Source: a virus
Lineage: Duplodnaviria; Heunggongvirae; Uroviricota; Caudoviricetes
Virus record (IMG/VR): IMGVR_UViG_3300029305_004950
Coordinates: 125,430-189,429 of that record
Direction: 5' to 3' (one strand)
Length of the DNA stretch: 64,000 nt
The notes beneath the pieces were generated by a model. That model was not told where the DNA came from. It made no database searches and was given only the letters and a program-made list of their open reading frames with translations. The first letter of the stretch is position 1. Each line of letters begins with the position of its first letter. Positions 9,939 to 35,532 of the stretch are shown here, in pieces. The position numbers and the translations under genes were made by a program.

Positions 9939-9942
9939 AAAC

Positions 9943-10500: not shown

Positions 10501-10519
10501 GTAAAGGAACTTTTGGTTT

Positions 10520-11581: not shown

Positions 11582-11914
11582 ATGTTTAAAATTATGAAAA
11601 AGGAAAAATATGAACTAAGATACTTTTCTGTAAAAATACCTGATGTTGGTATTGAAAGCATGAATAGCAAACAATTAGAAGCCTATTATTCGAAAGAAAA
11701 AATCATTCAATTAGCACAAGATAATGTAATTGAAATTTCATCATTTACACTATCTAAAATGTCAAATGAAGCTATAATTAGATTTAGTGTATTTGATAAT
11801 TCTTTAAAAGATAAGTTTTTAAACATTCTTAATAAAGACTATCGTGAATTGTTATTGATCAGAAGTTTGACACCGTTAGGAAGAATTAGAAATGTACACT
11901 GGATCTGCAAATGA
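11582..11914 (+). CDS. hypothetical protein
   Basis: 110-aa ORF. Confidence 0.45.
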   Translation: MFKIMKKEKYELRYFSVKIPDVGIESMNSKQLEAYYSKEKIIQLAQDNVIEISSFTLSKMSNEAIIRFSVFDNSLKDKFLNILNKDYRELLLIRSLTPLGRIRNVHWICK

Positions 11915-13489: not shown

Positions 13490-15019
13490 ATGGCGACTAA
13501 AAAGAATCTAACATATAACGAAGATAGTATTAAAGTCCAAGAATATCCTGATAATGTAAGATCTAATCCTACAGTCTATATCAGTAGTCTTGGTAAAGAA
13601 GGTAATACGCATCTACTAAGAGAAGTAATTGATAACTCTATTGATGAATTCCTAAATGGTTTTGGTAAAACAATTACAATTGAAATTTCCAATAAAAAAG
13701 GTGTATTTAGAGTAATTGATGAAGGTCGTGGTGTTCCTCCTAAATCTATTGAAAGAGCATTTACTACATTACATGCTTCAGGTAAATTCGATAAAGATAG
13801 TTATAGCACATCAGGTGGTCAGCATGGTCTTGGTAGTACATGTGTTAATGCACTTAGTAAGTATTTCCTTGTCATTACACATGAAGGTGGTCATGAATAC
13901 TCTCAAAGATTTGAATATGGTAAGAAAGTAACTGAACTAAAAGATTTAGGAAAGTCTGATAAGGTAGGTACTATTGTAGAGTTTTGTCCTGATGAATCTG
14001 TAATGGATACATTTGAGATTGACATTGAATCAGTCAAAGATGAATGTAAGATGAAGTCTTTTATCAATAAAGGACTTACTATCATTATTAAGGACATGGA
14101 TGAAAAGAAACAGGCTAAGTATTATCATAAAGATGGTATTGAGGAATACGTACAGTTAAATGCTAAGAAAGCTCTATTTAATCCTATTACATTCTCTACA
14201 TCAACTACTGTTAACAAGGCTAATAAAGAATTGAATGTAGAAATCGATTGTTCCTTTACTTATGATAACTCTACTGATCCTATCAATATTAAATCCTTCT
14301 GTAATTCCATTTATACTAGTGATGGCGGTACTCATGAAACTGGTTTTAAAACAGCTCTTACTAGTTTGATTAAAAAGTATATTGCTGATAATAACCTACT
14401 AACTAAAAAAGATGCAAATCTAGACATTACTGGTGATTCAGTTCAGGAAGGTGTAGTAGCAGTAGTATCTATCAAACATCCTCATCCGATGTATGATCAG
14501 CAGTCTAAGAAAAAGCTTAACTCTACAGAAGTTTCTGGTGCAGTAATGAAAGCAGTTAATGCAGAATTTAGTAAGTGGATTGAAACCCATGCTAAAGAAA
14601 TGAAAGTACTTTGTACTAAAGTAATTGAATCTGCAAAGGCTAACAGTGCTGCTAAGAGAGCTAAAGAACTAGCTAATAAGAAATCTGAAAATGGAATTAC
14701 TGCTGTTTCTGATCTATCAAAATTAGCTAACTGTATTTCTAAGAAACCTGAAGAATGTGAACTGTTTGTAGTTGAGGGTAATTCTGCAAGTTCAAGTGCT
14801 AGAAATGGTAGAGATAAGCAAACTCAGGCTGTTTATGCTCTAAGAGGTAAGATTCTCAATACTAACAATCTAGCTGAAACTAAGATTTTTGAAAATAAGG
14901 AACTATCAGATTTGATTTATATCTTAACTGGTAAGAAAACTGCAATTGGTAAGAATTTCAATGTTGAAGACATGAAGTATCATAAACTGGTAGCCTTGAC
15001 TGATGCTGACGATGACGGT
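13490..15019 (+). CDS. gyrB: type II topoisomerase ATPase subunit (GyrB/ParE-like), exon 1
   Basis: GHKL ATPase motifs EVIDNSIDE, GRGVP, GGQHGLGS; Toprim EGNSASSS and DADDDG. The reading frame hits a stop two codons after the conserved DADxDG motif; the downstream ORF supplies the rest (HIASLILGF...PPLY). Confidence 0.88.
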
Positions 15020-16310
15020 AAATGACACATTAAGTCTGCATCAGTGAGAAATTTTCTAACAATACATTAGTATTAATGTTAGGAGGTTTCATTCAAATGA
15101 AAAATGAAAAAGAAACTAAAGAAAGATATGCTTCTGGTATTGAAAATTGTAAAAAACAAGCTCAAAATCTTAAACAAAAAGCATCTGAAAAATTTTTAAG
15201 TAAAGTTTACGAACAAGTTGGTGATGATTATACTTTTCTGGAAACTTATGTAACGAGTAAAACTAAACTCTGGGTAATACATAATGTTTGTGGACATAAG
15301 TATAGAGTAACTCCAAATGAGTTTACTTCTCATAAAAGACGTTGTCCAAACTGTGCAAATAAAAAAAGAGTACTTAATACTGGAATAAAACCTCATACAT
15401 TAGAATCTATTATTGAAAGTGTAAAAGAATTATCTAATGACGAATATGAGGTAGTTAGTAATGAGTATGAAAATAATAAAGAAAAAATTTGGGTTAGACA
15501 TAAAACATGTAGTTATTCATACCTTGTTCGTTATAATGACTTTCAGCAAGGATATAGATGTCCTTTATGTGCTGACATGAATAAAAGTCAGAATAATTCT
15601 AAACCAATACAGGATATTAAAAGTGTTCTAGATTTTAATAAAATTGAGTATGAATCAGAAGTGTCATTTGAAGAATGTGTAGACAAACGTTTTCTTCCAT
15701 TTGATATATTGGTTTATACTGATAAAGTCAATGATGAATACTTTTTAATTGAGTATGATGGACAACAACATTCTGATCCTAATGCACAATTTGGAGGAAC
15801 TAAAGAAGAAAGACTTATTAGATTTGAGCTAACTCAAAAACATGACACTATAAAAAATGCTTTTTGTGAAGAAAACAGTATAAAACTTTATAGAATTTCT
15901 TATAAAGAAGATTTGATGAGCAAACTAAGAAGTATATTGGAAGAAAATAATCTAATTTGACTTGCAGTGAATGCCGTCTAAAAACCTAGTTAACTGCGGG
16001 AAACTATCAATAAACACTATTTACTAAACTAAGATAGTAATATACTTAGTGGCAATGGGTAACTCCAAAGATATAGTAAAAAGAATAGTGTTTGATACAA
16101 TCGACGCAACGAAGTATCCTACATTTAGTAAAAGATAGGATATGAGTTCAACGACTATCGAAACCAACTAACTTAATGTTAGTAATAAGGTAAGTTGAAA
16201 TACTTACACGAAGGGAGTAGAGTAGGGAAATGTAAATTACAAAGTACCGAAAAGCTAGGCTATACTAATTTAGTATAGAAAATATAGTCTAAATTATGCA
16301 AAGTAATTTG
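15020..16310 (+). mobile_element. group I self-splicing intron with homing-endonuclease ORF in the P1 loop
   Basis: Internal guide GCCGTC (15973-15978) complements the exon-1 end GACGGU with a terminal U-G pair. P-like element AACTGCGGGAAAC (~15992), R element GTTCAACGACTA (16146-16157), S element AAAATATAGTCT (~16279). The intron ends in G (16310), giving an in-frame join DADDDG|LHIASLILGF. Confidence 0.75.
15097..15960 (+). CDS. intron-encoded homing endonuclease candidate: two Zn-ribbon-like modules plus a PD-(D/E)xK (Vsr/DUF559-like) nuclease domain
   Basis: ATG at 15097 with TAGGAGG RBS. Duplicated W..H..C..Y.V....F....RCP.CA modules; C-terminal RFLPFDILVY...LIEYDGQQH resembles the restriction-endonuclease-like fold core. 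Confidence 0.55.
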   Translation: MKNEKETKERYASGIENCKKQAQNLKQKASEKFLSKVYEQVGDDYTFLETYVTSKTKLWVIHNVCGHKYRVTPNEFTSHKRRCPNCANKKRVLNTGIKPHTLESIIESVKELSNDEYEVVSNEYENNKEKIWVRHKTCSYSYLVRYNDFQQGYRCPLCADMNKSQNNSKPIQDIKSVLDFNKIEYESEVSFEECVDKRFLPFDILVYTDKVNDEYFLIEYDGQQHSDPNAQFGGTKEERLIRFELTQKHDTIKNAFCEENSIKLYRISYKEDLMSKLRSILEENNLI

Positions 16311-17135
16311 CTTCACATTGCAAGCCTTATCTTAGGATTTGTATATAGACATGCTAAACCCATTTTGGAAAAAGGTTACATGTATATTGCAATGCCTCCT
16401 CTTTATTCTATCATTGAAAGAAATAAGAAACGTTATTTCTTAAATCAAGAGGAATATGATGCATATATTGAGGAAAAGATTTTTGAAAACTATGTATTTA
16501 GTTGTAATGAGATAGGTTTAAATAAGACTAAAGCTAAAACCATTCTTAAGAATTTTGAAACTTACAAAAACAAAGTAAGTGAACTATCTACTAGTACAGG
16601 TATCAATATGTATTTAATTGATGATGTATGTGATTATTTACGTACTAATGAAAATGCAACAAGTAAGGATATTGTGAATTTATTAAAACAGATTGGTGAT
16701 TTTGAATTCTTTAAGAATGATGAAGGAAATTCTGAGATTAATGGTCTTTATGATAATAGCTTTGTAAATGCAGTAATTAAGGATTTAGTAAAGTCTGCTA
16801 AAAAAGCTAAGAAGATTCTAGAAGATCTTAGTATTCCTGAAGAAGTATTCATCAATGATTATCATCTATCAATTAAGAACTATCAAGACATGTATAACAA
16901 GGTTACACCTAAGTCCAGAAGTCGATTCAAAGGCTTGGGAGAAATGGATGCTAATGAACTTTGGGAAACTACTCTTGATCCTTCAGTTAGAAACATTATG
17001 CAAGTTGTACTATCAGATGAAGAAAAGACAGATGATACTATGGATACACTACTAAATTCTAATAGTAAGTATGCAGACAAACGTAAAGTATTCTTAATGA
17101 AAAATCAGCAAAAGATTAAGGAATTAGAAATCTAA
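16311..17135 (+). CDS. gyrB: type II topoisomerase subunit B, exon 2 (C-terminal)
   Basis: HIASLILGFVYRH...YMYIAMPPLY... matches the GyrB region following DADVDG(S)HI; the KGLGEMDANELWETTLDP block matches the GyrB C-terminus. Confidence 0.85.
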   Translation, partial: LHIASLILGFVYRHAKPILEKGYMYIAMPPLYSIIERNKKRYFLNQEEYDAYIEEKIFENYVFSCNEIGLNKTKAKTILKNFETYKNKVSELSTSTGINMYLIDDVCDYLRTNENATSKDIVNLLKQIGDFEFFKNDEGNSEINGLYDNSFVNAVIKDLVKSAKKAKKILEDLSIPEEVFINDYHLSIKNYQDMYNKVTPKSRSRFKGLGEMDANELWETTLDPSVRNIMQVVLSDEEKTDDTMDTLLNSNSKYADKRKVFLMKNQQKIKELEI

Positions 17136-20880: not shown

Positions 20881-23800
20881 ATGGCACAGAATGTAATTCA
20901 AAAGGATATTGTTGATATTCAAAAAGACAATATGCTTCAGTATATGATGTCTCTAATGTATGATAGAGCGATTCCTGATATTAGAGATGGATTAAAACCA
21001 GTACAGAAATTTATCCTTTGGAGTTGTTACAGTTCAGGTTTCTTTCCAAATAAACCCCATGTAAAGTGTGCTAAGATTGCTGGTGATGTTATTGCTAACT
21101 TCCATCCACATTCACTAGATGCAGCTTATGAAGCATTGTGTAGACTTGCTCAGACTCATTCTATGAATATTCCATTAATTGATTTTCATGGTGCATGTGG
21201 TTCTATTGATGGATCAGGCGCAGCAGCTCATAGATATTGTGTGACTGGTGATACCTTAATTAGTCTACCAAATGGTAAATTAAAAAGAATTGATGAACTA
21301 ATTGAAAATTCTAATGATGATTCAACTATGGATGTAGATTTTGAAGTATTAGATTTTAAAAATAATCCAGTACATGTTTCTAAATTCTTTAATTCTGGAA
21401 AACATGATATAATCAAGATTAAAACCAGTTCTGGTTGTACTATTAGAGGTAGTTATAATCATCCTATCTTGTGTTTATATAAAAATCCTACTGATGGTCT
21501 ACCAGAATTCAGATGGACAACTTTAGATAAAATTGAAACTGGATGTTATGCTGTTATAGCATCTAAATTCAATAATTCTTTTAATGAAACTATAAGTGAA
21601 GAAGAAAAGCTTAAAGCAATTTTCTTTGGTGGAATGGTTTCTGAAGGAGGTTTATCTAAAAATCAGAGATACTATAGAGTAAGTTTCTCCAATCAAGATA
21701 ATGAATACTATAATCTAGTGGAATCTGGATATAAAGTATATCTTGAAGAGAATAATCTAAGTAATTTGAATATTCGTATTAATCCAAATGCTCGTGGTGG
21801 AGTTAAAGAATTTTGTACTGAAGACAAAAATCTTCATAATTTAGTTAAAGAACAAATTGGTGAAGATGCTCATAATAAACAGATTCCTCCCTATGTTCTA
21901 AACTCTAATTTAGAAATTCAAAGATGGTTTTTAAAGGCACTTTTTGAAGGAGATGGAGGAGTAACATGTCGTTTAGATAAAAGAAGAAAAGATAATGTTA
22001 CTGGACATGTATTTTATTCTACTTCTTCAACAAAACTTTTGAATGAATTAAAAATTCTATTAATGAATTTTGGTATTAGAACTAAAGTTACTAAAGACAG
22101 ATCTAATTTTAAACTTACAATTTATTCTTTAACTGACATGAAAATTTTTAAAGAAAAAATAGGATTTTTAAGTGATAGAAAAAATAAAGTATTGAATGAA
22201 TTAGTAGAAAATAAAGAAATACAAATTACTAAGTCTTATGGTGTTTCTTCTTCAGATAAAATTCCATATCTTGCCGAATTCATTAGAAATAATAAACTTA
22301 GAAATACACATTATTTAAAGTCTCATAGCCTAAATTGTAAACAAGATATAGATAAACATAATGATGTAATTAAAGATTCTTTGAGTTATGAAGAATATTT
22401 TAAGCTTATGAGAAAACTTGAAGTTTTAGATTTATACCATTATGAAGAAATTATTGAAGTTGAAAGACTACCAGAAGAAGTAGTATATTCAATTAAAGTA
22501 GATTCTAATGATCATAGTTTTATTAGTAATGGTTTTATTAGTCATAATACTGAGGCAAAACTTAGTAAATATGGATTAGATATTCTTAGTGAAATCGATA
22601 AGGATGCTGTTGATTTTGAAAAGAACTATGATGTAACTAAAGATCAACCAACTGTTTTACCTGCAGTAATTCCTAATATCCTATTGAATTCTTCAATGGG
22701 TATTGCAGGTGGTTATGCTTCTTCAATTCCTCCACATAACATCAAGGATGTATGTAATACTGTATGTGAACTAATTGATAATCCTAATATGTCAGTTCAA
22801 GATGTAGCTAAGAAACTAGTTCCTGACTTTCCTACAGGTGGTATCTTATGTTCTAAGAAGGAAATTGAAAAAGCTTACATTACTGGTCAGGGTTCAGTAA
22901 AACTAAGAGGTAGAGCAACTATCAATAGAAATAAGAATAACACATCAGAAATTGTTATTACTGAAATTCCATTTATGACTACAATTGGTCCTCGTATGAG
23001 TGGCACATCTACTAATACTGAGGGTGGTTTGATTAATTCCATTGTAGCTAAGATTAAAGATGGTACAATTGATGGAATTAAGGATATTCACGATATTTCT
23101 GATAAGAATGGTCTATGTATTAAAGTTTTTATCAAGAAAGATTATGACCCTGATGTTATTCTAAATCAGTTATACAAGTTCACTCAGTTAGAATCTACTT
23201 TTAAGATCATTCTAGTTTGTAAGAATGGTAATTTCTTTAAGGTTTATAACATCAAGGAAATTCTAACTGAATGGATTGAATTCCGTGTATCTACTATTAG
23301 ACGTATCATTACACATGATATCAAGAAAGCTAAGTATCGTGAACATATTCTAGAAGGTCTATTAAAAGCATTAACTGATATCGATACTGTTATTAGTATC
23401 ATTAAGAAAGCTAATGGAAGAGCTGATGCTAAAGTAAAGTTAGTTAGGAAATATGGATTTACTGATTTACAGGTTGAAGCTATTCTTGACATGAAACTTT
23501 CTCAGTTAAACTCTCTAGATGGAAAGAAGCTAGAAGAAGAAAAACTAAGTAAGCAAAAAGAAATTCTAGAACTAAAAGAGAATTGGAAAGAATCCAATAT
23601 CTATGAAAGAATTAAGAAAGAACAGAAAGAATTTGCTAAAAAATATGGTAGTGAAAGAAAGACTACTGTAGAAGAGATTGATACTGATATTACTACTGAA
23701 GACATTATTGCTGATGAAGATACTTTGATTGTCATTACTCAGGGTAATTACATTAAGCGTATTTCAAATGAGTTTAGAACTCAGAAACGTGGTACTCAGG

Positions 23801-24696
23801 GTATTTCTATTGGTGATAACTCTATCACAGAAATGTTCTCTGCTTCTACTAAGGATCATCTACTATGTTTTACTAATACTGCCAGAGTCTATGATTTAAA
23901 AGCTTATGACATTAAAGAATCTAAGGATCTTAAAGCTAAGGGTTTAAGAATTGAAAATTATCTAAATCTAAAAGAAAATGAAACAGTTACTAACATTCTA
24001 TGTATCAATAATACACAGATGAATGATAATGAATCCTTCCTAGTTTTCGCTACTAAGAATGGTATGATTAAGAAAACTAAGTTAGAAGAATTCAATAACA
24101 TTCGTTCTACTGGTATTATTGCTTTGATGTTAAAGTCTGGTGATGAACTAGTTTCTGTAAAGTATATTGATACTAGTAAACCTATGCAAGATATCTTGAT
24201 TTCTACTAAAAATGCTCAGACAGTTAGATATGATCATGAAGAAATCAAAGAATTAGGTAGAAATACCTATGGTGTAATTGGTATTAATCTAGAAAATGAT
24301 GACCGTATTACAGATATGTGTATCATTGAAGATGACGAACAACTAATCTTCTTTGCTACTAAAAATGGTTTAGGTAAAACTATTCGTATTACTGATAATG
24401 TAGAAAAAGTTGATCCCAATACTAAAGAAAAAGTAATCATCAATGATGGTTTTCCTAGACTAAAACGCTCATCCAACATTAAAGGCAGACTATGCATGAA
24501 ACTAAAAGAAAATGACGAATTAGTTTCAATGGTAGCTATCAATAATGTAAATGACGAACTAATGATTGTTACTGATAGCAAACTATTAGTAGTCAATACT
24601 GAAGAATTCAAAGAACCTTTAAAGAGACCTACTTATGGTAAGAAATTAGTTAGTTTGACTAATGAAGACTATGTAAGAAAGGTGATTCTAAAGTGA
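20881..24696 (+). CDS. gyrA: type II topoisomerase subunit A (GyrA/ParC-like) interrupted by an in-frame intein
   Basis: The extein reads ...GSGAAAHRY|TEAKLSKYGLD, matching GyrA AAMRYTEARL around the catalytic Tyr. A C-terminal beta-pinwheel region is present. Extein is about 834 aa after removing the 437-aa intein. Confidence 0.88.
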   Translation: MAQNVIQKDIVDIQKDNMLQYMMSLMYDRAIPDIRDGLKPVQKFILWSCYSSGFFPNKPHVKCAKIAGDVIANFHPHSLDAAYEALCRLAQTHSMNIPLIDFHGACGSIDGSGAAAHRYCVTGDTLISLPNGKLKRIDELIENSNDDSTMDVDFEVLDFKNNPVHVSKFFNSGKHDIIKIKTSSGCTIRGSYNHPILCLYKNPTDGLPEFRWTTLDKIETGCYAVIASKFNNSFNETISEEEKLKAIFFGGMVSEGGLSKNQRYYRVSFSNQDNEYYNLVESGYKVYLEENNLSNLNIRINPNARGGVKEFCTEDKNLHNLVKEQIGEDAHNKQIPPYVLNSNLEIQRWFLKALFEGDGGVTCRLDKRRKDNVTGHVFYSTSSTKLLNELKILLMNFGIRTKVTKDRSNFKLTIYSLTDMKIFKEKIGFLSDRKNKVLNELVENKEIQITKSYGVSSSDKIPYLAEFIRNNKLRNTHYLKSHSLNCKQDIDKHNDVIKDSLSYEEYFKLMRKLEVLDLYHYEEIIEVERLPEEVVYSIKVDSNDHSFISNGFISHNTEAKLSKYGLDILSEIDKDAVDFEKNYDVTKDQPTVLPAVIPNILLNSSMGIAGGYASSIPPHNIKDVCNTVCELIDNPNMSVQDVAKKLVPDFPTGGILCSKKEIEKAYITGQGSVKLRGRATINRNKNNTSEIVITEIPFMTTIGPRMSGTSTNTEGGLINSIVAKIKDGTIDGIKDIHDISDKNGLCIKVFIKKDYDPDVILNQLYKFTQLESTFKIILVCKNGNFFKVYNIKEILTEWIEFRVSTIRRIITHDIKKAKYREHILEGLLKALTDIDTVISIIKKANGRADAKVKLVRKYGFTDLQVEAILDMKLSQLNSLDGKKLEEEKLSKQKEILELKENWKESNIYERIKKEQKEFAKKYGSERKTTVEEIDTDITTEDIIADEDTLIVITQGNYIKRISNEFRTQKRGTQGISIGDNSITEMFSASTKDHLLCFTNTARVYDLKAYDIKESKDLKAKGLRIENYLNLKENETVTNILCINNTQMNDNESFLVFATKNGMIKKTKLEEFNNIRSTGIIALMLKSGDELVSVKYIDTSKPMQDILISTKNAQTVRYDHEEIKELGRNTYGVIGINLENDDRITDMCIIEDDEQLIFFATKNGLGKTIRITDNVEKVDPNTKEKVIINDGFPRLKRSSNIKGRLCMKLKENDELVSMVAINNVNDELMIVTDSKLLVVNTEEFKEPLKRPTYGKKLVSLTNEDYVRKVILK
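21238..22548 (+). mobile_element. intein (437 aa) with LAGLIDADG homing-endonuclease domain at the GyrA catalytic-Tyr site
   Basis: Starts with Cys (CVTGDTLISLPNG) and ends ...SHN before +1 Thr. Blocks resemble the Mycobacterium GyrA intein (CITGDALVALPEG ... NHPLLCL ... HAFITNGFVSHN). Two LAGLIDADG motifs: FFGGMVSEGG and LFEGDGGV. Confidence 0.85.
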
Positions 24697-25771: not shown

Positions 25772-25927
25772 ATGAAATGTCCTAACTGTGGTTGTGATTT
25801 ATTACTAACAGTAACTACAAATGATATTACAGGAAATAGTTATACTAGTTTTTATAGATGTGAAAGTTGTGAAACTAAATTAGACGAAGATGAAGTAGTG
25901 AAATTTAATGATAATGAGATTATTTAG
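25772..25927 (+). CDS. small zinc-ribbon protein (CPNCGC...CESCE)
   Basis: 51-aa ORF below the track cutoff. Confidence 0.3.
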   Translation: MKCPNCGCDLLLTVTTNDITGNSYTSFYRCESCETKLDEDEVVKFNDNEII

Positions 25928-26022
25928 CTTATAACTATAAAAAGTAAAAATTTTTATAAATATATTTAATAATTCTGTAAACAAAATACTACAACACAAC
26001 TAATCAAAAAGGAGACAAAATC

Positions 26023-26220
26023 ATGAAGTATTCAGAATTGGTCGATCAGGTATTCGTAACTTCGGTGGCAGGTGTTGTACCTTATATCGAAGGACATGCT
26101 GGTGTTGGTAAGTCGCAGATGATTAGAGACGTAGCAAATCTCTATCGTGAAAAAGGATTTGAGGAAGTACCTATCGTTACCTTATTCGGTGCGCTACTAA
26201 AAGAGGGAGAGCTTAACTAA
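26023..26220 (+). CDS. MoxR/AAA_5-type ATPase, exon 1 (Walker A)
   Basis: HAGVGKSQMIRDVANL Walker A. The frame stops after 65 codons; the Walker B half lies 1.2 kb downstream. The exact 3' end of the exon is unresolved. Confidence 0.7.
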   Translation: MKYSELVDQVFVTSVAGVVPYIEGHAGVGKSQMIRDVANLYREKGFEEVPIVTLFGALLKEGELN

Positions 26221-27410
26221 AGGTTACAATTCTTTAATAAAGGGGATGTTTTTATGAGAGTAAAAACAAAACCTAATGTTGATGTTGGAGTTACTTTCAC
26301 AAATAACGATGGTTTAGATTTTATAGTAGATGAGATAGTAGAAATAAAAAAGTATGAAAAAATGTGTAAAATCACATTTTTAGAAAGTGGATATTCAGCT
26401 ATAGTTGGTAGTAGTTCTATAACAAAAGGAAGTGTTAAAGATTACTATCAGATAACTATTCTTGGTGTTGCTTGTTTTGGTGATGCTAAAACAAATCCAA
26501 GGCATACTAAGCAAACATATAGAATTTATAAAAACATGTTACATCGTTGCTATGATGAAAAAAACAAAGACTATAATTCATATGGTGGTATTGGTGTTTC
26601 TGTTTGTTCTAATTGGTTGAACTATAACAATTTTCTAAATGACCTTTATGATATTGAAGGATTTGATTTTGAAAAATTTGAAAATGGTGAAATTAGTATG
26701 GACAAAGATAAGAAACAAAAATACATTCCTAAGAATGAAAGAATTTATAGCAAGGAAACATGTTGTTTCATATCTACTAGTGAAAATTCTACTATAAGAA
26801 ATTTCGAAAATAGTCTAAATCCAGAAAAAAGAAAAATTCTTATAACCTATCCAGATGGTAATACTGAAACAATAGATAGAACAGAATTAAAAATCTATTG
26901 TGAAAAAAAGGGTTTTACAAATCCAAACCATATTAGAAGAGTTTTAAGAAAAGAACGTAATTCTTACAAAAACATTAAATTTGAACTTGTAGACTAATGG
27001 GTTCTTCATTAACAAACCTCATGAACTTAAGGTAAGATCTTAAGGTGTGTTACTTATCGTATTAAGTAATGCTAACGGTATCAGTGGAATAAGGATAGTT
27101 TACTATCACGAAGCAGCTGACTAAGAGACTCTACGGTCCAGAAATGGATAGCAGACAATACCGTGCCAAGCTTCTCAAAAGAGATGAAGGTGTACAGACT
27201 ATCGAAACCAACTAGTTTTAAACTAGTAATAAGGTAAGTTGAAATACTTACACGAAGGGAGTAGAGTAGGATAAACAATCCGAAGGATGAGGATCTAGAT
27301 TGTTTCTAGATAAAAGATAGTCGAAAAATCACATAGAAATATGGTAGTGAAAACTACATGATTTTTGCGGTGGTATTCCCGTTCCTAGACGTGATGAAAA
27401 TAGCAAGAAA
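26221..27410 (+). mobile_element. group I intron interrupting the MoxR ATPase gene (boundaries approximate), with endonuclease ORF near its 5' end
   Basis: Core 27000-27400 holds an R-like GTACAGACTATCG (27192-27204) and an S-like AAAGATAGTCG (27313-27323). A 43-nt block AATAAGGTAAGTTGAAATACTTACACGAAGGGAGTAGAGTAGG (27228-27270) is identical to the gyrB intron at 16184-16226. Confidence 0.7.
26254..26997 (+). CDS. intron-encoded endonuclease-like protein (phage HNH/free-standing homing-endonuclease-associated DNA-binding motif)
   Basis: YRIYKNMLHRCYDEKNKDYNSYGGIGVSVCSNWLNYNNFLNDL matches the Y..W..M..RC......Y..YGGRGI.VC..W..F..F..D module common in phage HNH-family endonucleases. Confidence 0.55.
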   Translation: MRVKTKPNVDVGVTFTNNDGLDFIVDEIVEIKKYEKMCKITFLESGYSAIVGSSSITKGSVKDYYQITILGVACFGDAKTNPRHTKQTYRIYKNMLHRCYDEKNKDYNSYGGIGVSVCSNWLNYNNFLNDLYDIEGFDFEKFENGEISMDKDKKQKYIPKNERIYSKETCCFISTSENSTIRNFENSLNPEKRKILITYPDGNTETIDRTELKIYCEKKGFTNPNHIRRVLRKERNSYKNIKFELVD

Positions 27411-28352
27411 ATGATCAACGATTACACTACACATGTTAAAATGCAGCAGATTTTGGATAATGATACTAGAGGTATCAACACAATCCTCTTTATTGACGAG
27501 CTAAATAGATGTGAAGCAGCAGTGAATCAGGAACTCATGCAGTTGATTCTTGACCGTAGAATCAATGAAACGATTCTTCCTGATTCTTGTATTATTGTTG
27601 CAGCAGGTAACCCTGAGTATGACGATGATAACGACTATCAGGTTCAGGTTATGAACGACGCCATGAAGAATCGGTTTGTTAAGTATACACTTGAAGCTGA
27701 TGTAAAGGACTGGCTTAAGTGGGCATCTAACACAAAGGATGATAACAAAACTGGTACAGAAGCAATTGATTCTGACGTAATTGAGTTTATTGCAGAAATG
27801 CCTAATCTACTTCACGATCCTCATAGTAAAGAAGACATCAAGCCCACTCCTAGAGGTTGGGAACTTCTTTCTAAGGTAATGAGACAGATTAAGAATTACT
27901 ATCCTGAAGATTTTGAAAGTATGTTGTTTGAAGCAGCAAAGGGTGTAGTTGGTCAGACTCCTGCAACCCAGCTAATTGGTTTCCTGAGAGATAAGAAGAA
28001 TCCTATTACTTCTACTAAGGATATTTTCAAGTCTTCTGATAAGGAATTTAACAATAACGTACTTAACAAGATTAAGGGTGATACATCCACTAGACAGTTC
28101 GTTATCATTGATCGTTGCATTCGTTACATTAGCGAAAACATTAAGGAATTCAATGATAAGAAGACTGGTGAAAATAGCTGTAAGAGATTCATTGAAGTAT
28201 GTAAGGTACTTCCCAAGGACATCATGGTTGGCGTTCTAAAGAACATTGGTGTTAATCATAAGAATATTCATGATACTTTTACTAAGTATGATGACTATAT
28301 GGATCTATTCTTTGATACCAATAAGAAGACTATGACTGCGGCAAACATCTAA
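27411..28352 (+). CDS. MoxR/AAA_5-type ATPase, exon 2 (Walker B / sensor region to C-terminus)
   Basis: ILFIDELNRCEAAVNQELMQLILDRR...IIVAAGNPEYDD matches the MoxR vlLaDEiNRa...ATqNP pattern. The frame is open upstream to 27351, so the true 3' splice site lies between about 27351 and 27411. Confidence 0.75.
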   Translation: MINDYTTHVKMQQILDNDTRGINTILFIDELNRCEAAVNQELMQLILDRRINETILPDSCIIVAAGNPEYDDDNDYQVQVMNDAMKNRFVKYTLEADVKDWLKWASNTKDDNKTGTEAIDSDVIEFIAEMPNLLHDPHSKEDIKPTPRGWELLSKVMRQIKNYYPEDFESMLFEAAKGVVGQTPATQLIGFLRDKKNPITSTKDIFKSSDKEFNNNVLNKIKGDTSTRQFVIIDRCIRYISENIKEFNDKKTGENSCKRFIEVCKVLPKDIMVGVLKNIGVNHKNIHDTFTKYDDYMDLFFDTNKKTMTAANI

Positions 28353-28362
28353 GCCATACTAA

Positions 28363-28420
28363 TAGAGTTTAAGAGTTAGAGAAAAATAAAAAATTCTCTA
28401 ACTCTTAAACTTTTTTCTTT
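28363..28420 (+). terminator. rho-independent terminator
   Basis: AGAGTTTAAGAGTTAGAGAA-loop-TTCTCTAACTCTTAAACT plus T-run. Confidence 0.6.
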
Positions 28421-28471
28421 TTTAATGAGTAATCAAAAAATCTTATAGAGAAAGGAGATGTACTATAAGTT

Positions 28472-29641
28472 TTGACTGATAAAGAATTGGAATTTGTAAA
28501 AAAGTTTCTAGATTTTAAAGAAGCTACTGAAAACAGTTACTACTATGATCGTTATATAACACCAAGTGATGTTATGAAGTTTTTACAACCAGATGCAAGA
28601 AGAAACTATAAAGATGCTTGTAACATACTTTCTTATGAAGATAGAATAGATTTAGCAAAAATCTATCTAGAAAGAATAGTAAGTATGACATTTAGTAACA
28701 ATTTTGGTTACTATAAAAATAGTCATAATAGTAATAAAGGTTACTATGAAACGATGTTATCCAATAGTGGAATTGACTGTTATGTTGATGTAGCTAAAAC
28801 AAATGAAGAAGGTTTTCCATTAGAGTTCAACAAGAAAAATGAGAACTTTTTCTATATCTTCTTAGATGGTCTCTATAAGTATTGGGATAAGCAGTTAGAA
28901 TACTATAAAAACAATCAACAAGAAGCTGTAGAGATTATGTTTGAATCTCAATGTAATGGTACTTGGTTTTACTATAACCATTTCAACTATAACTTCCTAA
29001 AAGTATATCTAGAATATCTGAAATCTAGAGGATTTAAGATTAACATCTTTGAGCTTTTCAATAAGAAACTCAAAAGAGTTATAAAAAGTATGGATAAAGG
29101 TTTAGCACATTATACTAAATCTTATCTATTTGAAAGTTTAGCTATAATCTTTGATTTCTATAATGCTATTCTAGATATCTATGGAGAAGATAATGAAAAA
29201 GTAATCAATAAGCTACAGAACAATCTAATCACTATTTTCAAAGATGAAATAGAAACTGAGAAATTTGGTTTCATGAATACTTTCTTATACACAAAGAGGT
29301 GGACTAACAATAGTAAGAATAGAAGTTCTGAATCAACTAGTGATGTAGTTCATTTCTGGGAGTATGTTTACAATAATGAACTAAATCCTACTTTAAAACG
29401 TATCTTCTTGAATGCAATAATTCATACTTGGAATAAGTCACCTATTCCAAAAGTAAGAAACTCAATGCAGTTACTAGTGGATTTAGCAACTTATAAATAT
29501 GATGGAAGATCAGGATTTCCATACCATAATCAAAGATTGTTCTATAATGACATAATTGCAAATGCAAACATGCTAAAGAAATCTGTTAAATCTATACTAT
29601 TTTCTAAAGCAATTCTAGAAGAAGGAGGTTTATTTCTATAA
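28472..29641 (+). CDS. hypothetical protein (389 aa) between the ATPase and VWA genes
   Basis: TTG start with AAAGGAGA RBS. Confidence 0.5.
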   Translation: MTDKELEFVKKFLDFKEATENSYYYDRYITPSDVMKFLQPDARRNYKDACNILSYEDRIDLAKIYLERIVSMTFSNNFGYYKNSHNSNKGYYETMLSNSGIDCYVDVAKTNEEGFPLEFNKKNENFFYIFLDGLYKYWDKQLEYYKNNQQEAVEIMFESQCNGTWFYYNHFNYNFLKVYLEYLKSRGFKINIFELFNKKLKRVIKSMDKGLAHYTKSYLFESLAIIFDFYNAILDIYGEDNEKVINKLQNNLITIFKDEIETEKFGFMNTFLYTKRWTNNSKNRSSESTSDVVHFWEYVYNNELNPTLKRIFLNAIIHTWNKSPIPKVRNSMQLLVDLATYKYDGRSGFPYHNQRLFYNDIIANANMLKKSVKSILFSKAILEEGGLFL

Positions 29642-31137
29642 TGGCAGCTAAAGTTAGTACTAAGAATACTAGTTTAGAAGACATGAATGTAGAAGAACTT
29701 AAGAAAAGATGCTTAGAATGTGTTAACAACAAGGATCTTAATACTGCAACAAGATACTTTAAAGAGTACATTGAATTGATCATCTTCAATCTATTGATTT
29801 CAGATCACTTCTTTGGTACTTTCATTATCCATATGCAAAGAGAAATTCGTTATGATTTCTATGCACCTGCAGGTGTAACTATCAAAAAAGGTTCTCCATT
29901 ATTGGTAATAAATCCTGCTCTACTACTAAGATATACTCATAAAGAAGTTAAAGCTATTCTAAAACATGAGGTTTATCATCTACTTCATTTCCATCTTCTA
30001 AGAAGTAAAGAGAATAACAATCGTTTTGATAGCTATATTGAGAATATCGTTATGGACGTTGCTATCAACCAGTTCATTCCAGAAATTCCTGATGAATGTG
30101 TTACGTTTGACAATTTCTGTAAACAGTTTAAACTAGATCCTTACAGAGTATCTCGTAAAGAATCTTTTGAGTATTACTTAGAACTAGTAAAGAATAGTGA
30201 TGTATACAAAAAAGATTCTGAACAGTATAAGCAAATGATGAAGGATATTCAGGATATTCTTGATCAGCTTAATGAAAGTATGGGTCAGAATGGTAATGGT
30301 TCTGGTAGTGGCTCTGGATCTGGTGATGGTAAAAATGGTAAAGCTTCTGGAAATGGTTCTGGAAATGGTGGAAAATCCATTCAGGAAATGTTAGATGAAA
30401 TTCTAGATAAGAAATATCCTATTGATCATTCTATCTGGAAAGAATCTGATAGTTCCGATGTTCAGAACATCAAGGAGATCGTTAAGCATATGGTAAATGA
30501 AGCAATCAAGAATTGTGGTAATGTACCTGGCGATCTACAAGAGCTAATCAATAAGATTAATGAACCTACTATCATTAAGTGGCAGGATGAACTAAAGAGA
30601 CTTGTTGGTTCTGTTAAGTGTCCTTATAAACTTACTCCTCTAAGAAGACCTAGAAGACAGCCTGATAGAATGGATCTTAAGGGTAAAATGTCTGATAGAA
30701 AAGTTAAAATCGCAGTTGCTATTGATACTTCTGGTTCTATGGGTGAAAGAGAACTTCAGTTTGTATTCTCTGAAATCTTTAAGATTCTAGAATTGGTTAA
30801 GTTTGAAATGACAATCATTGAATGTGATTATAACGTACAGAGAGTTTATAAGGCTAAGAACCTGCAAGAAGTTGACATGAATGTCAAGGGACGTGGAGGT
30901 ACAGCATTTACACCTGTCTTCAAATATCTTAAGGAAGAAATGCGTCAACAAGATAAACCTGACTTACTGGTTTATTTCACTGACGGATGGGGCGAGTCTT
31001 GTCTTGACGAAAAGTATCATATTAGTAGTAGTACCAAACTAATGTGGGTATTAACAGGACGTAAGAAAGATTTATCATGTTCTGGACATGGTGCTTGGAC
31101 TAATAAGATCAAAGAACTTAAGATGAACGAAAGATAA
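29641..31137 (+). CDS. VWA-domain protein with N-terminal HExxH putative metallopeptidase domain (DUF2201-like MoxR partner)
   Basis: HEVYHLLHFH motif; Gly/Ser/Asn linker; VWA MIDAS region KVKIAVAIDTSGSMG...FTDGWGES. Confidence 0.75.
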   Translation: MAAKVSTKNTSLEDMNVEELKKRCLECVNNKDLNTATRYFKEYIELIIFNLLISDHFFGTFIIHMQREIRYDFYAPAGVTIKKGSPLLVINPALLLRYTHKEVKAILKHEVYHLLHFHLLRSKENNNRFDSYIENIVMDVAINQFIPEIPDECVTFDNFCKQFKLDPYRVSRKESFEYYLELVKNSDVYKKDSEQYKQMMKDIQDILDQLNESMGQNGNGSGSGSGSGDGKNGKASGNGSGNGGKSIQEMLDEILDKKYPIDHSIWKESDSSDVQNIKEIVKHMVNEAIKNCGNVPGDLQELINKINEPTIIKWQDELKRLVGSVKCPYKLTPLRRPRRQPDRMDLKGKMSDRKVKIAVAIDTSGSMGERELQFVFSEIFKILELVKFEMTIIECDYNVQRVYKAKNLQEVDMNVKGRGGTAFTPVFKYLKEEMRQQDKPDLLVYFTDGWGESCLDEKYHISSSTKLMWVLTGRKKDLSCSGHGAWTNKIKELKMNER

Positions 31138-31149
31138 GTGTTAAATTCA

Positions 31150-31190
31150 TACTAGAGACTATAATACAACTTATAGTCTCTAGTATTTTA
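31150..31190 (+). terminator. rho-independent terminator
   Basis: ACTAGAGACTATAA-loop-TTATAGTCTCTAGT plus T's. Confidence 0.55.
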
Positions 31191-31223
31191 CATAAATCAA
31201 AAAATAAAAAGGAGACTTAAAAA

Positions 31224-32783
31224 ATGGCAATTATTATCCCTATCATTATTGGCGTAGTACTATTAGGATTAGTCATTGGTTTCATGTGTATGATTTACAA
31301 GGTAGCTGATATTGACAAGGCATTGATTATTACTGGTGGCAAAGAGCCTAAGATTAAGGTATCTGGTGGTAGTTTTGTAATTCCTATTTTTAGAAGAGCA
31401 CAGTATTTTGATCTTTGTATGCTTACTGTTAAGGCCGATAGAGATGAAATTCGTACTGTAACTTCTGTACCTATTGTTACCGACTGGACTGCTCAGATTC
31501 GTCCTGATACCTCTGATGAAGCAAATCTAAAGAAAGCAATTATGTCTTTTAAAGAACGTGGTCAGGAAGGTATTATTAATGATGTTAAACTAACTCTTAC
31601 TGGCGCTGTTCGTGATATTGTTGCATCTATGACTCCTGAAGCTGTTCTTAAAGATAAGGCTGAATTTGCTCAGAAGGTTCGTGATACTGTTGAAGATGAA
31701 ATGAGAAACATGGGTATGGAACTAGTTTCTCTAAACATTCAAGATATTTCTGATAATAATGGTTACTATGATAACATTGCAGCTCTAGATATGGAAGATA
31801 AGCGTCTATCCGCAGAAACTAAGAAGGCTCAGATTAATCAGGAAGTTCGTAAGAAGAAGGCAGAATCTGAACAAGCTGCTGCTCATTCTGAACTTGCTGC
31901 AAATCTAGCTATTGCTGAAAAGAAACGTGATAATGATCTTAAGAGAGCTGAATTTAAGGCTGAAACTGATACTGCTAATGCAAATGCTGAAATTGCTGGT
32001 AGACTTCAGACAACTAAGAGAGAACAGGAAGTTGCAGAACAGGAAGGTAGAATTCAGGTAATCCGTCAGGAACAGGCTAACTTTGCTGCTCAGAAGGAAA
32101 AGGAAGTTATCATCACTAAGGCACAGGCTGAAAAAGAAAAGAATCAGATTGCAGCTGAAGCAGTAGCTAACATCAAGAAGATTGATGCTGAAGCAAAGGT
32201 TATGGTTGCTGAAAGAGAAGCTAATGCTATTAAGATCAATGCTGATGCTAATGCAGAAAAGGTTAAGAAGGAAGGTCAGGCAACAGCTGATGTTACTAAG
32301 CTAAAGGGTATTGCTGAAGCTGAAGTAGCAAAGGAAAAGGGTCTAGCAGAAGTAGAAGTCATTAAGGAAAAGGGTCTAGCAGAAGCTGAAGCTGAGAAGG
32401 CTAAACTACTAGCTAAGGCAGAAGGTGAAAAGGCTCTAGCAGATGCTCGTGCTTCTAATGAAAAGGTTAACTTCGAAATCGAAAAGCTTAAGATTGAAGC
32501 TGAAGCTAGAGTAACTATTGCTACTAAGACTGCTGAAATTATGGCTGAGATTGGTAAGAATGCTGAATTCGTCAACATCAATGGTTCTTCTCAGGGTACT
32601 CAGAGTGGTAATGTACTAATCGATACTCTTAAAGGTATTCCTGAACTTATGAAGGTTCTTAATGTTGAGAATGAAGCTCTTAATGGTAAGGGTATTAATG
32701 ATGAAGTTAAAGGTATTGTCGAGAGTGTAACTGGTCCTGTAAAGGGATTACTTGTTGACAATTCTAACAAGTCTGATACATAA
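31224..32783 (+). CDS. SPFH/band-7 (flotillin-like) membrane protein with long Ala/Glu/Lys coiled coil
   Basis: N-terminal TM helix (IIIPIIIGVVLLGLVIGFM), band-7 core, then about 200 aa of AEKEK/AEAEA-rich coiled coil, as in flotillin/YqiK. Confidence 0.75.
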   Translation: MAIIIPIIIGVVLLGLVIGFMCMIYKVADIDKALIITGGKEPKIKVSGGSFVIPIFRRAQYFDLCMLTVKADRDEIRTVTSVPIVTDWTAQIRPDTSDEANLKKAIMSFKERGQEGIINDVKLTLTGAVRDIVASMTPEAVLKDKAEFAQKVRDTVEDEMRNMGMELVSLNIQDISDNNGYYDNIAALDMEDKRLSAETKKAQINQEVRKKKAESEQAAAHSELAANLAIAEKKRDNDLKRAEFKAETDTANANAEIAGRLQTTKREQEVAEQEGRIQVIRQEQANFAAQKEKEVIITKAQAEKEKNQIAAEAVANIKKIDAEAKVMVAEREANAIKINADANAEKVKKEGQATADVTKLKGIAEAEVAKEKGLAEVEVIKEKGLAEAEAEKAKLLAKAEGEKALADARASNEKVNFEIEKLKIEAEARVTIATKTAEIMAEIGKNAEFVNINGSSQGTQSGNVLIDTLKGIPELMKVLNVENEALNGKGINDEVKGIVESVTGPVKGLLVDNSNKSDT

Positions 32784-32791
32784 GCTTCTTA

Positions 32792-32830
32792 AAAAGAATA
32801 GACTCTATCAAAAGAGTCTATTCTTTTTTT
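32792..32830 (+). terminator. rho-independent terminator
   Basis: AAGAATAGACTCT-loop-AGAGTCTATTCTT plus T7. Confidence 0.6.
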
Positions 32831-32890
32831 GTTATTTTTCTAGACTTTAACAAATCTATAATAGAAAAACATAGAAGAAGGTGAACTAAA

Positions 32891-34104: not shown

Positions 34105-35532
34105 TTGGAAATAATGAATGAAAATGTTCTTTTACAGGAATCTTACTTCGGTAAGGATAGTACTCTACTAGAATGTGAAGAATGTATTAAAGCGATGAAA
34201 GAAGCTATAGTAGCAGGCAAGAATCCTAACTCTATCAATGAAAAGACTACATTTGAATCTTTGATAGCTAAAAAGTTCAACTGTGAAAAAGTCTATTTAT
34301 CTATTTTAGCTGATGAAAGTGGATTGAATGCATATACTGTACCTTTCTATTATGAAAAGAATCGTAGTTATGATGATAAGTTTTTTGAACTAGTATCAGA
34401 TAATAATGGTATACGATATAAGTCTGCTACTGGTAAGACTTTATACATCTATATCAATACTTATACCATTAGAAACTATAGTGTCACTAACATCATGGGT
34501 ATTTTACTACATGAAGTTGGACATAATTTCTTCTATATGAAGGAACAGATACAAAATCGTAAGTCTAAGCTATTTACAGAGTTTGTACTATACTTAATGA
34601 GACTGTTAGATCAATACAATTATGATCCTAGATTAGTATCTGAAGTTGTAAGAGTTTTAATCAATGAAGGATTGAACTTTAAAAAAGGAATTCAAAAGTC
34701 TTCTTATGAAGAAACTAAGAAATTCCTATCTGATAAAGCTTTTGACATCATTAATGGTAGATACAAGTCTACCCATACTGGAATTGGTAAAGCTTTCTAT
34801 ACTTTAGCTACTGTTGTAGGTAAGGTTATAACTACTGCTTTTTCTTTAGTAAATACTGCAATATATACACTAATGTTCCCTCTATTAGTCAATTCTGCGG
34901 CTTATAAGAATCTAGAGAATTCAGCTAAGAAAACTCAGAACTATAATGCTGAAAAGTTCTGTGATAACTTCGCAGCTTCTTATGGTTATGCATTAGGTGT
35001 AGTTGATACTTTCAACTCTTCCTCTAACTTTACTTATTCTAAAAAAATTGCTAGTAAGATTCCTATTGTTAGAGTCTTAGATTACTATTCTGATGTCTTA
35101 TTCTATTTCGTTGCTTATATGAGTGACGAACATCCTACTCATCAGAAACGTGTAACATTTGCTTTAGAGAAATTAAAGTATGAGTTAGAAACTAACAAAA
35201 AGAACATGTCTCCTAAACAGATAGAAGAAATCCAGAATGATATCAATGATATCGAAAAGCTATTAAAGAAAACTCCTTATTTCAAGAAAGCTATAGATAA
35301 GCTATTTGCTGGTATTGATGATAGGAGAGATAAAGCTGGTTCTTTAGGTATGACTGATGAAGAAATCTATGATTTCGATAAGACTATACTAAAGGATAAA
35401 GTTACAACTATCAATAAAGAAGATTTAGGTATACTTTCTTATATGACAGAAGACTATCAAAAAGCTATAGATGACTATTTTGAATCTCCTGTGATGGAAA
35501 TGTTAAATGAATCCTGTATTCTAGAACAATGA
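34105..35532 (+). CDS. hypothetical protein with HExxH zinc-metalloprotease-like motif
   Basis: ILLHEVGHNFFYM; 475 aa. Confidence 0.5.
   Translation: MEIMNENVLLQESYFGKDSTLLECEECIKAMKEAIVAGKNPNSINEKTTFESLIAKKFNCEKVYLSILADESGLNAYTVPFYYEKNRSYDDKFFELVSDNNGIRYKSATGKTLYIYINTYTIRNYSVTNIMGILLHEVGHNFFYMKEQIQNRKSKLFTEFVLYLMRLLDQYNYDPRLVSEVVRVLINEGLNFKKGIQKSSYEETKKFLSDKAFDIINGRYKSTHTGIGKAFYTLATVVGKVITTAFSLVNTAIYTLMFPLLVNSAAYKNLENSAKKTQNYNAEKFCDNFAASYGYALGVVDTFNSSSNFTYSKKIASKIPIVRVLDYYSDVLFYFVAYMSDEHPTHQKRVTFALEKLKYELETNKKNMSPKQIEEIQNDINDIEKLLKKTPYFKKAIDKLFAGIDDRRDKAGSLGMTDEEIYDFDKTILKDKVTTINKEDLGILSYMTEDYQKAIDDYFESPVMEMLNESCILEQ

Follow-up and report, generated by a model that had tools for sequence, protein, structure and literature searches.

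A MoxR-class ATPase/VWA gene pair of an uncultivated jumbo phage with a predicted group I intron, a clade-specific third gene and an inserted flotillin-type gene

This work considers a group of genes at positions 26023-32783 of a stretch of viral DNA (Duplodnaviria; Heunggongvirae; Uroviricota; Caudoviricetes; IMG/VR record IMGVR_UViG_3300029305_004950, positions 125,430 to 189,429), which is 64,000 nucleotides (nt) long and is called here the window. The genes encode an AAA+ ATPase, a protein of 389 amino acids (aa) named here X, a VWA protein with a predicted zincin domain and a flotillin-type (SPFH) protein. In our opinion, the locus probably represents a conserved core module with two independent mobile additions, a group I intron and the flotillin gene, and we hold this view with somewhat more confidence than doubt. 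The window has a guanine + cytosine (GC) content of about 29%, and the region under study lies on its + strand. It is situated in a replication and nucleotide-metabolism block (an earlier sequence-only reading of this DNA had spoken of a replication region), together with genes of a helicase, ribonucleotide reductase, GyrB, a CCA-adding enzyme and an intein-containing GyrA. The features of the region, including open reading frames (ORFs) and hairpins, are as follows.

25958-25977, + strand: AR9-type early-promoter-like motif AAATATATTTAAT-N6-G, 65 nt upstream of the ATPase start.
26023-26213, + strand: exon 1 of the AAA+ ATPase gene, with Walker A GHAGVGKS; it aligns to the intronless gene of contig L005 up to ...GGAGAGCT.
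26214-27367, + strand: predicted group I intron, 1,154 nt, with IA-like extra hairpins and an ORF in the P1 loop.
26254-26997, + strand: homing-endonuclease-like ORF, 247 aa (PHROG 2081 'HNH endonuclease', E 8e-47; also PHROGs 374 and 953).
27368-28352 including the stop, + strand: exon 2 of the AAA+ ATPase gene, with Walker B LFIDELNR, sensor 1 N, the Arg finger and a C-terminal helical domain.
28364-28413, + strand: hairpin of 20 bp followed by a U-run, between the ATPase and X genes (RNAfold -24.9 kcal/mol, then CUUUUUUCUUUUUU).
28472-29641, + strand: X, 389 aa, predicted all-helical orphan protein, start TTG at 28472.
29641-31137, + strand: protein with a predicted zincin (HExxH) domain, a G/S/N-rich linker and a VWA/MIDAS (metal ion-dependent adhesion site) domain, DUF2201 family (N4 gp25 / AR9 gp029 family).
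31149-31186, + strand: hairpin of 16 bp before the SPFH gene, at the 5' edge of the inserted segment (RNAfold -20.9 kcal/mol, then four U only).
31224-32783, + strand: flotillin-type SPFH protein, 519 aa (Band_7, 73.5 bits).
32791-32828, + strand: intrinsic-terminator-like hairpin with a 16-bp stem and a T-run.

A megablast search of the region DNA against 50,697 phage records gave no match. By protein comparison, AR9, PBS1 and BpSp, jumbo phages with uracil-DNA, are the closest cultured relatives, with about 30-35% identity; the VWA protein was found in identical copies on 14 metagenome contigs. This kinship, together with the finding of the X protein on a contig of 319,626 bp, indicates that the window comes from an uncultivated AR9-like jumbo phage. 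Similarities of its CHAP-SH3 endolysin and of its flotillin suggest a Clostridia-type host.

The VWA protein passes the Pfam cut-offs for both DUF2201_N (PF13203, 46.5 bits) and DUF2201 (PF09967, 56.9 bits), matches PHROG 1314 (E 4e-60) and is 30-32% identical to the proteins of AR9, PBS1 and BpSp over about 90% of its length. It carries an N-terminal HExxH motif and the MIDAS residues DxSGS, T and D; H109, E110, H113, D362, S364, S366, T421 and D448 are invariant in seven phages, ranging from the window phage to AR9 and BpSp. Only weak, sub-threshold similarity to SprT-like and M48 proteases was found for the HExxH domain. The sequence-only reading had described the protein in just these terms, as a VWA protein with an N-terminal, DUF2201-like HExxH domain, and this description is borne out.

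A census by an alignment-based scan covered 80 IMG/VR viral loci with the VWA gene; in 77 of them an ATPase gene lies within 10 kb, 76 being on the same strand and 41 directly adjacent. A scan of viral contigs with the single VWA protein returned no relatives. The linkage of the two genes is beyond chance. In AR9 (g028/g029) and BpSp (gp083/gp084) they are adjacent and follow the gyrase genes, and by tblastn the pair was detected in 267-354 phage records, including N4-like Pseudomonas phages of about 72 kb. It also occurs in PBS1, the Listeria phage LPJP1, 121Q-like coliphages, and Vibrio and Staphylococcus jumbo phages. In N4-like phages, gp24 and gp25 belong to the 14 core genes and are found in middle transcripts (PMC4193335), and a pair of MoxR and metallopeptidase-vWA proteins was reported for group 2.2 jumbo phages with a proposed role in virion assembly (Iyer et al. 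2021, PMC7824862). Judged by these comparisons, the ATPase and the DUF2201 zincin-VWA protein are a genuine, conserved MoxR-class/VWA pair already known from phages, in accordance with the pairing suggested earlier.

The ATPase itself is not encoded by any single ORF starting at 26023. Two ORFs correspond to its two exons, namely 26023-26220 (65 aa, with Walker A only, matching positions 9-49 of PHROG 1297) and 27411-28352 (313 aa, from Walker B onwards, matching positions 98-352 of the same family). The sequence-only reading correctly recognized a MoxR-class ATPase and did not mention that its gene is split by an intron. A strain about 99% identical to the window (contig L005) has an uninterrupted gene of a 391-aa AAA_5 ATPase; the DNA of exon 2 is 98.7% identical to it, and the match resumes exactly at 27369. 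The spliced product passes the Pfam AAA_5 model (PF07728) with 29.1 bits at a cut-off of 22 and either exon alone falls below it, so that the transcript must be spliced for the ATPase to be made. An active ATPase would depend on RNA splicing, and self-splicing is predicted.

The spliced product contains GHAGVGKS, LFIDELNR, AAGN and KNRF, i.e., Walker A, Walker B, the sensor 1 Asn and the Arg finger, and its residues G27, G29, K30, D107, N145 and R166 are invariant among 40 homologues. A profile of these homologues searched against the PDB found midasin AAA domains (1.5e-25), McrB (7e-9) and the MoxR-like structure 2r44 (1e-6). A structure model, built on homologue P0134, which is 91% identical to the window protein, has a predicted local distance difference test score (pLDDT) of 89; its top 15 Foldseek matches are NorQ, including NorQ-NorD VWA complexes, and CbbQ2 (E 2e-10 to 1e-7), followed by McrB and 2r44. 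An NCBIfam search of the ATPase gave no match, and a match to Pfam AAA_3 is confined to distant homologues, for example, P0167 and P0172. According to the model, the protein is closest to the NorQ/CbbQ-like AAA_5 ATPases of the MoxR class; it is presumably hexameric.

The intron is absent from L005 and from the sister phages represented by contigs L009 and L010, where uninterrupted ATPase genes of 391-422 aa were found. Its removal gives the in-frame protein junction KEGEL|GGIPVP, as in intronless L005, whose sequence around the junction is ...GGAGAATTAGGAGGAATACCC.... The boundaries 26213|26214 and 27367|27368 are the only ones that both restore the frame and obey the group I rules applied here, U before the 5' splice site and G as the last intron base. 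U26213, the last base of exon 1, pairs with G27002 in P1, and G27367 is the terminal intron base. In P1, GAGCUU (26209-26214) pairs with GGGUUC (27001-27006); because this 3' strand comes immediately behind the ORF, the endonuclease-like gene is contained in the loop of P1. A Pfam search of the 247-aa ORF product gave no match, and no catalytic motif was identified in it. A P7 pairing, GACUAUC/GAUAGUC, was read by eye amid R- and S-like elements. The isolated core reaches 10.9 bits with Rfam RF00028 (E 3.1), which is below the threshold.

Comparative evidence gives stronger support to the intron than Rfam does. Contig L022 (77-503) has a homologous ORF-less intron at the identical ATPase codon, the product of its exon 2 being 64% identical, and contig L033 (about 8409-8735) has a more divergent ORF-less intron with the same boundaries, its VWA protein being 38% identical. 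In all three phages the insertion point lies within the Leu codon of KEGEL|GG. RNAalifold applied to the three introns recovers P1, and 18 of the 72 predicted pairs show compensatory changes on both sides. By these alignments, three allelic states exist: no intron, an intron, and an intron with an endonuclease-like ORF. The element can be regarded as a new member of a familiar class.

Interruptions of other genes were also noticed. A second copy of the intron core lies at 16146-16230 and matches the core in the ATPase gene (nhmmer E 3.8e-12). It is situated in gyrB (13490-17135), which looks interrupted: ORF 13490-15025 ends inside the Toprim domain, ORF 16296-17135 represents the GyrB C-terminus, and ORF 15076-15960 between them encodes a treble-clef zinc-finger domain (DUF4379). 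This interruption probably represents another group I intron, related to the first and provided with an endonuclease-like ORF of its own. In contig L043, the ATPase match is split (5189-5452 and 6524-7639). In phage LPJP1 (MZ422438.1, 7192-9668), the ATPase match falls into two pieces and that of the VWA protein into three, overlapping two and five annotated 'hypothetical proteins', respectively, and this pair may be interrupted by introns or frameshifts. Introns were also reported in AR9 genes (PMC5312081).

Between the genes of the pair lies the 389-aa protein noticed in the earlier reading, which proves to belong to an orphan family of conserved position. X has no match in Pfam, PHROG, NCBIfam or PADLOC, and tblastn against the phage collection finds nothing, even at E 1. 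Its family numbers only 10 clusters in a set of 5.8 billion proteins; a search of 1.84 billion representatives added two remote relatives, which are supported by hhalign at 97-98% probability. Every homologue with a readable neighbourhood lies between genes of an AAA_5 ATPase and a DUF2201 VWA protein. This position was read in L009, L010, L017-L021, the partial contig L022, and the IMG/VR contigs L031 and L032 (the last is the L018 contig), and it is kept even where the ATPase is 35% and the VWA protein 41-46% identical. Neighbourhood analysis, proposed in the earlier reading, thus confirmed the association of ATPase and VWA genes in general and that of X within its clade; for the SPFH gene it did the opposite, as is described below. 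X of L009 and L010 shows 46-53% identity to that of the window, whereas the identity of the ATPase is 84-87% and that of the VWA protein 67-78%. The downstream gene p243, which has no link to the module, is equally divergent (52-53%), and such fast evolution is not specific to X.

The X stop codon overlaps the VWA start in the window (TAATG), and overlap or abutment was found in four of five lineages. The last codons of X (29617-29628, GAAGAAGGAGGT) carry the Shine-Dalgarno ribosome-binding site of the VWA gene and at the same time encode the conserved C-terminal motif EEGG(L) of X, so that part of the conservation of EEGG may be a nucleotide-level constraint. An alternative X start, TTG at 28487, corresponds to the ATG start in L005. 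The structure prediction proposed earlier for this protein gave an all-helical model with one beta-hairpin (pLDDT 78.7, predicted template modelling score 0.81). On the evidence of gene order and family distribution, X is a new, narrowly distributed, clade-specific third gene of a known pair, and its translation is predicted to be coupled to that of the VWA protein. Most likely, it serves as a clade-specific adaptor, regulator or substrate of the pair.

As to transcription, the early-promoter-like motif upstream of the ATPase gene has two mismatches to the AR9 early consensus AAATATATATTAT-N6-G (PMC5312081), and its core TTTATAAATATATTTAATA recurs before the ATPase genes of L005 and L009. A late-like AACA-N6-TA sequence lies 3' of it at about 25982-25993; in AR9, genes that have promoters of both types show continuous expression (PMC5312081). 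An early promoter is annotated immediately before g028 in the AR9 record. AR9-like early motifs with at most two mismatches were found on the + strand at 682, 9281, 12776, 17666, 25958 and 49235, 50-65 nt before ORF starts; these positions suggest that the window phage uses the AR9-type class of promoters for virion RNA polymerase. Expression of the ATPase-X-VWA unit is probably early or lasts throughout infection and is not confined to the late phase, and this timing makes a purely late role in assembly less likely. The hairpin between the ATPase and X genes is a possible terminator or attenuator. It cannot exist in L009, where the gap between these genes is 18 nt.

The fourth gene has a different history. 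Its product was described in the sequence-only reading as a membrane-anchored SPFH protein with a coiled coil rich in A, E and K, which holds: besides the Band_7 domain, it has a hydrophobic anchor at residues 3-21 (Kyte-Doolittle 3.0), and residues 206-425 consist of 54% A+E+K. The NCBIfam FloT model matches residues 5-395 (E 2.6e-51) with 175 bits, below the equivalog cut-off of 700, and by this measure the protein is FloT-like and not a FloT equivalog. The gene is absent at this locus in L009, L010, L017 and L018; the sister phages L009 and L010 keep the order ATPase-X-VWA-p395-p475-p243 without it. In L009, a hairpin AAAAAGAATAGACTCT...GGGTCTATTCTTTTTTT and a conserved AACA-N6-TA motif stand directly 3' of the VWA stop, in L010 this place is taken by a terminator-like hairpin and the same motif, and in the window the matching hairpin and motif are located 3' of the SPFH stop instead. 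This displacement shows that a segment of about 1.65 kb (roughly 31138-32790) has entered between the VWA stop and the terminator of that gene, and by the same comparison the hairpin at 32791-32828 is the ancestral terminator of the X-VWA unit. The hairpin at 31149-31186 has no counterpart in L009 or L010. There is no strong terminator before the SPFH gene, so read-through probably leads to its co-transcription.

The SPFH protein is 73% identical to a flotillin from a metagenome-assembled genome of Clostridia, which is encoded in a core chromosomal neighbourhood (infC-rpmI-rplT, spoIID, maf, smpB, RNase J), and 64-83% identical, 80% for some, to copies on other contigs, including viral ones, with unrelated neighbours. 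None of the 80 VWA loci contains an SPFH gene, and none of eight SPFH loci contains the ATPase or VWA gene. The GC content at third codon positions of the gene (0.235) matches the phage background, which suggests that the capture was not very recent. A literature search on phage-encoded flotillins found nothing specific. Judged by these data, the flotillin gene is a lineage-specific, host-derived insertion and not a part of the conserved module.

On four IMG/VR contigs of 66-128 kb (L023, L024, L025 and L028), a flotillin 64-69% identical to that of the window follows NAD-salvage genes at about 5500-11600. In most of these contigs, the genes scanned were those of a NAMPT-like phosphoribosyltransferase and NAD synthase; in L023 an isochorismatase domain was scanned as well. 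A DUF2828/DUF7788 protein is found near the flotillin in L012 and L023. The flotillin appears to be a recurrent cargo of gut or rumen phages at several distinct loci.

Putting these data together, the conserved core would be a phage version of the MoxR-class AAA+/VWA machine. In the NorQ-NorD system, a finger of the VWA protein enters the pore of the ATPase, and ATP hydrolysis twists the NorD linker (PMC13036017). By analogy with NorQ-NorD and CbbQ-CbbO, the VWA domain of the phage protein may dock on the ATPase ring, while its MIDAS site would hold an acidic residue of a target protein. ATP hydrolysis would then pull or twist the flexible G/S-rich linker, and the target would be remodelled and subsequently cut by the attached predicted zincin. 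In the clade of uncultivated AR9-like jumbo phages, X would assist the pair as a third protein. A mobile group I intron would have invaded the ATPase gene at a conserved codon, the copy of the window strain carrying an endonuclease-like gene. The flotillin gene would have been captured from a Clostridia-type host and inserted between the VWA stop and the operon terminator as an independent cargo, most likely acting on host membrane organization or membrane-stress tolerance during infection.

Several observations weigh against this interpretation. The remodel-and-cut mechanism is proposed by analogy, and no client of a phage pair is known. A single-sequence phmmer search of the ATPase against the PDB gave spurious Get3 matches and no MoxR structure, and the window ATPase does not match Pfam AAA_3 (PF07726), the model of MoxR proper. 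Rfam at the gathering score found nothing in the whole window, and a scan of 25900-27600 by E-value gave noise only. The number of early-like motifs in the window (10, with 7.8 expected from shuffled sequence) is not above chance, so that the early-promoter assignment rests on position and on AR9. Because a strong hairpin with a U-run separates the ATPase gene from X, it is possible that the three genes are not transcribed as one unit; the flotillin gene, in its turn, stands upstream of the operon terminator, its co-expression with the module is likely, and a functional link is formally conceivable. The structure search with the X model gave no informative fold match. Finally, AR9, PBS1 and BpSp have no X (when the X family was compared by hhalign with 16 neighbouring proteins of AR9 and BpSp, the probabilities were below 3%), from which it follows that the pair works without X.

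The last point leads to the view that X may simply be one more inserted gene tolerated at this place, whose function, as in the case of the flotillin, has nothing to do with the pair. Apart from its absence in these three phages and the lack of any recognizable domain, it should be taken into account that in other phage groups, and in many of them, unrelated genes occupy the same gap between the ATPase and VWA genes, some on the opposite strand. However, the position of X does not change across a clade in which the pair itself has diverged to the identities mentioned above, all its homologues on readable contigs are found there, its stop overlaps or abuts the VWA start in most lineages, and it holds the VWA ribosome-binding site. 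We consider this view unlikely, although it deserves serious attention.

A comparable, likewise minor probability may be given to the published idea that the pair acts as a chaperone of virion assembly, which folds or assembles structural proteins while the fused peptidase processes them (Iyer et al. 2021). It was put forward for jumbo-phage proteins of this domain architecture on the analogy of the Acidianus two-tailed virus, whose MoxR and VWA proteins are needed for tail development (PMC7824862). The core status of the pair in N4-like phages fits a basic virion or replication function, and MoxR/VWA systems are generally maturation chaperones (PMC13036017). Expression and gene context speak differently: the promoter annotated in AR9 is early and the N4 genes are of the middle class, the window pair stands among genes of gyrase, ribonucleotide reductase, helicase and the CCA enzyme behind an early-like motif, and structural genes are not adjacent.

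A role in conflict or counter-defence, which the sequence-only reading had mentioned for MoxR-VWA modules, is rather improbable, and we keep it as one of the readings. Here, an ATPase-X-VWA machine would act early, X bringing to the MIDAS site a host protein, such as a factor of defence or membrane stress, for ATP-driven unfolding and cleavage. The third component of bacterial MoxR-vWA ternary systems has a rapidly diverging, mostly alpha-helical middle region (PMC7159879), X evolves much faster than its ATPase and VWA neighbours, expression is probably early, and the HExxH domain has the weak, sub-threshold SprT-like and M48-like similarity noted above. On the other hand, PADLOC matches none of seven proteins, including all components of the module; X has neither VMAP-C nor iSTAND features and no NCBIfam match; p243 diverges as fast as X; the enzymatic domain of the VWA protein is N-terminal and variable C-terminal effectors are lacking; and the pair belongs to the stable core set of N4-like phages and not to a patchy, shuffled island.

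SPFH proteins often partner with proteases, as in HflKC-FtsH and stomatin-NfeD. That all four proteins form one membrane-associated complex for membrane remodelling or exclusion of competitors, as the sequence-only reading had suggested, would agree with this partnership, with the putative zincin encoded next to the SPFH gene and with four consecutive genes on one strand, whose plausible co-transcription is indicated by the only strong terminator following the SPFH gene, but it is very improbable in view of the SPFH-free locus of sister phages with all flanking genes and of the distant L017 and L018, the visible insertion boundaries, the empty intersection of the 80 and eight loci, the flotillins that elsewhere follow NAD-salvage or other unrelated genes, and the lack of a membrane-spanning segment in X and the VWA protein (maximal Kyte-Doolittle scores over 19 residues of 1.3 and 1.6). 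Homologues of the SPFH gene and of the pair were never found near each other at these loci outside this genome, and, as far as the present data reach, the proposed link is refuted on that reading's own terms.

Of the preferred explanation, a core module with two mobile additions, several consequences deserve mention. The ATPase/zincin-VWA pair, a core element in N4-like phages that is widespread in jumbo phages, has no known function, and a clade with a translationally coupled third gene offers a possible handle on its client or regulator; if the host-targeting variant were true, a three-part machine would give this never-explained core pair a function. Unless the intron is recognized, the ATPase is mis-annotated as two fragments and an "HNH endonuclease", and one codon of its gene appears as a recurrent homing site of group I introns in divergent phages. 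A tempting but wrong flotillin association is removed from the annotation. At the same time, several phage lineages seem to have acquired, at different loci, flotillins close to Clostridia host copies, and this points to a selectable role of host-type membrane scaffolds during infection.

Some neighbouring genes may be described here. An AACA-N6-TA sequence, the consensus of AR9 late promoters (PMC5312081), stands between the terminator and p395 in three phages (32836-32860 in the window, about 4645-4670 in L009 and about 10840-10870 in L010), and p395-p475-p243 may be a separate late unit. The gene p475 (34105-35532, PHROG 2767) encodes a second putative zincin with the HExxH motif LLHEVGHNF and weak, sub-threshold M48 and SprT-like matches; it is kept downstream in L009 and L010 and is found in neither L017 nor AR9. 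Membership of p395 (PHROG 2921) and p475 in the module was considered and rejected, as they lie behind a terminator and a late-promoter-like motif, are absent from L017 and are replaced in AR9 by a different paralogous family. That family consists of four paralogues, g030, g031, g034 and g035 (PHROG 13583/38865), downstream of the VWA gene in the AR9 locus (L001, 10313-15414), and is unrelated to the downstream genes of the window. GyrA (20881-24696, 1,271 aa) holds an intein with a LAGLIDADG endonuclease domain, whose boundaries are visible in the translation (CVTGDTLISL...SHNT); for the identical gyrA on L003, the precomputed Pfam order is DNA_topoisoIV, Intein_splicing, LAGLIDADG_3, DNA_topoisoIV and DNA_gyraseA_C.

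Among known systems, the gene pairs gp24/gp25 of N4 and g028/g029 of AR9 (PHROG 1297 and PHROG 1314) resemble the window pair most of all in belonging to the same families with the same order, strand and invariant HExxH and MIDAS residues. In AR9 and BpSp the pair is also near gyrase genes, as in the window, and its expression in AR9 and N4 is early or middle. The differences include the identity of 30-35%, the intervening 389-aa gene, the intron-split ATPase gene and the downstream flotillin gene.

NorQ-NorD and CbbQ-CbbO provide the closest solved folds for the ATPase and likewise combine an ATPase with a separate VWA/MIDAS partner, the ring remodelling the linker of the VWA protein (PMC13036017). 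However, the identity of NorQ/CbbQ to the window ATPase is about 14%, and at its C-terminus the phage ATPase has an additional helical domain of about 140 aa. In the phage VWA protein, a predicted zincin protease domain takes the place of the N-terminal domains of NorD and CbbO, and no metalloenzyme client is evident.

The bacterial MoxR-vWA ternary systems with VMAP or iSTAND proteins (Kaur et al. 2020, PMC7159879) also include a MoxR-type ATPase, a vWA protein and a diverging helical third protein. In contrast to them, X has neither the VMAP-C (alpha+beta) nor an inactive STAND domain, the carrier is a phage, the VWA domain itself is C-terminal and is accompanied by a conserved N-terminal zincin domain, and defence databases give no matches.

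The SPFH protein shares with FloT of the Bacillus type an N-terminal membrane anchor, the Band_7 domain and a long coiled coil rich in A, E and K, whereas it is phage-encoded and has no adjoining gene of an NfeD-type partner. As for the predicted intron, it resembles phage group I introns with homing-endonuclease genes (T4 td/nrdB, SPO1 and Twort type) in its location at a highly conserved codon of an enzyme gene, the 5' splice-site U paired with a G in P1, the terminal G, a P7 with R- and S-like elements as read by eye, additional hairpins located between P3' and P8, and an endonuclease ORF that is optional and loops out from a peripheral element. It differs from them in the new host gene, that of a MoxR-class ATPase, in the position of the ORF in the P1 loop and in its below-threshold score with the general Rfam model.

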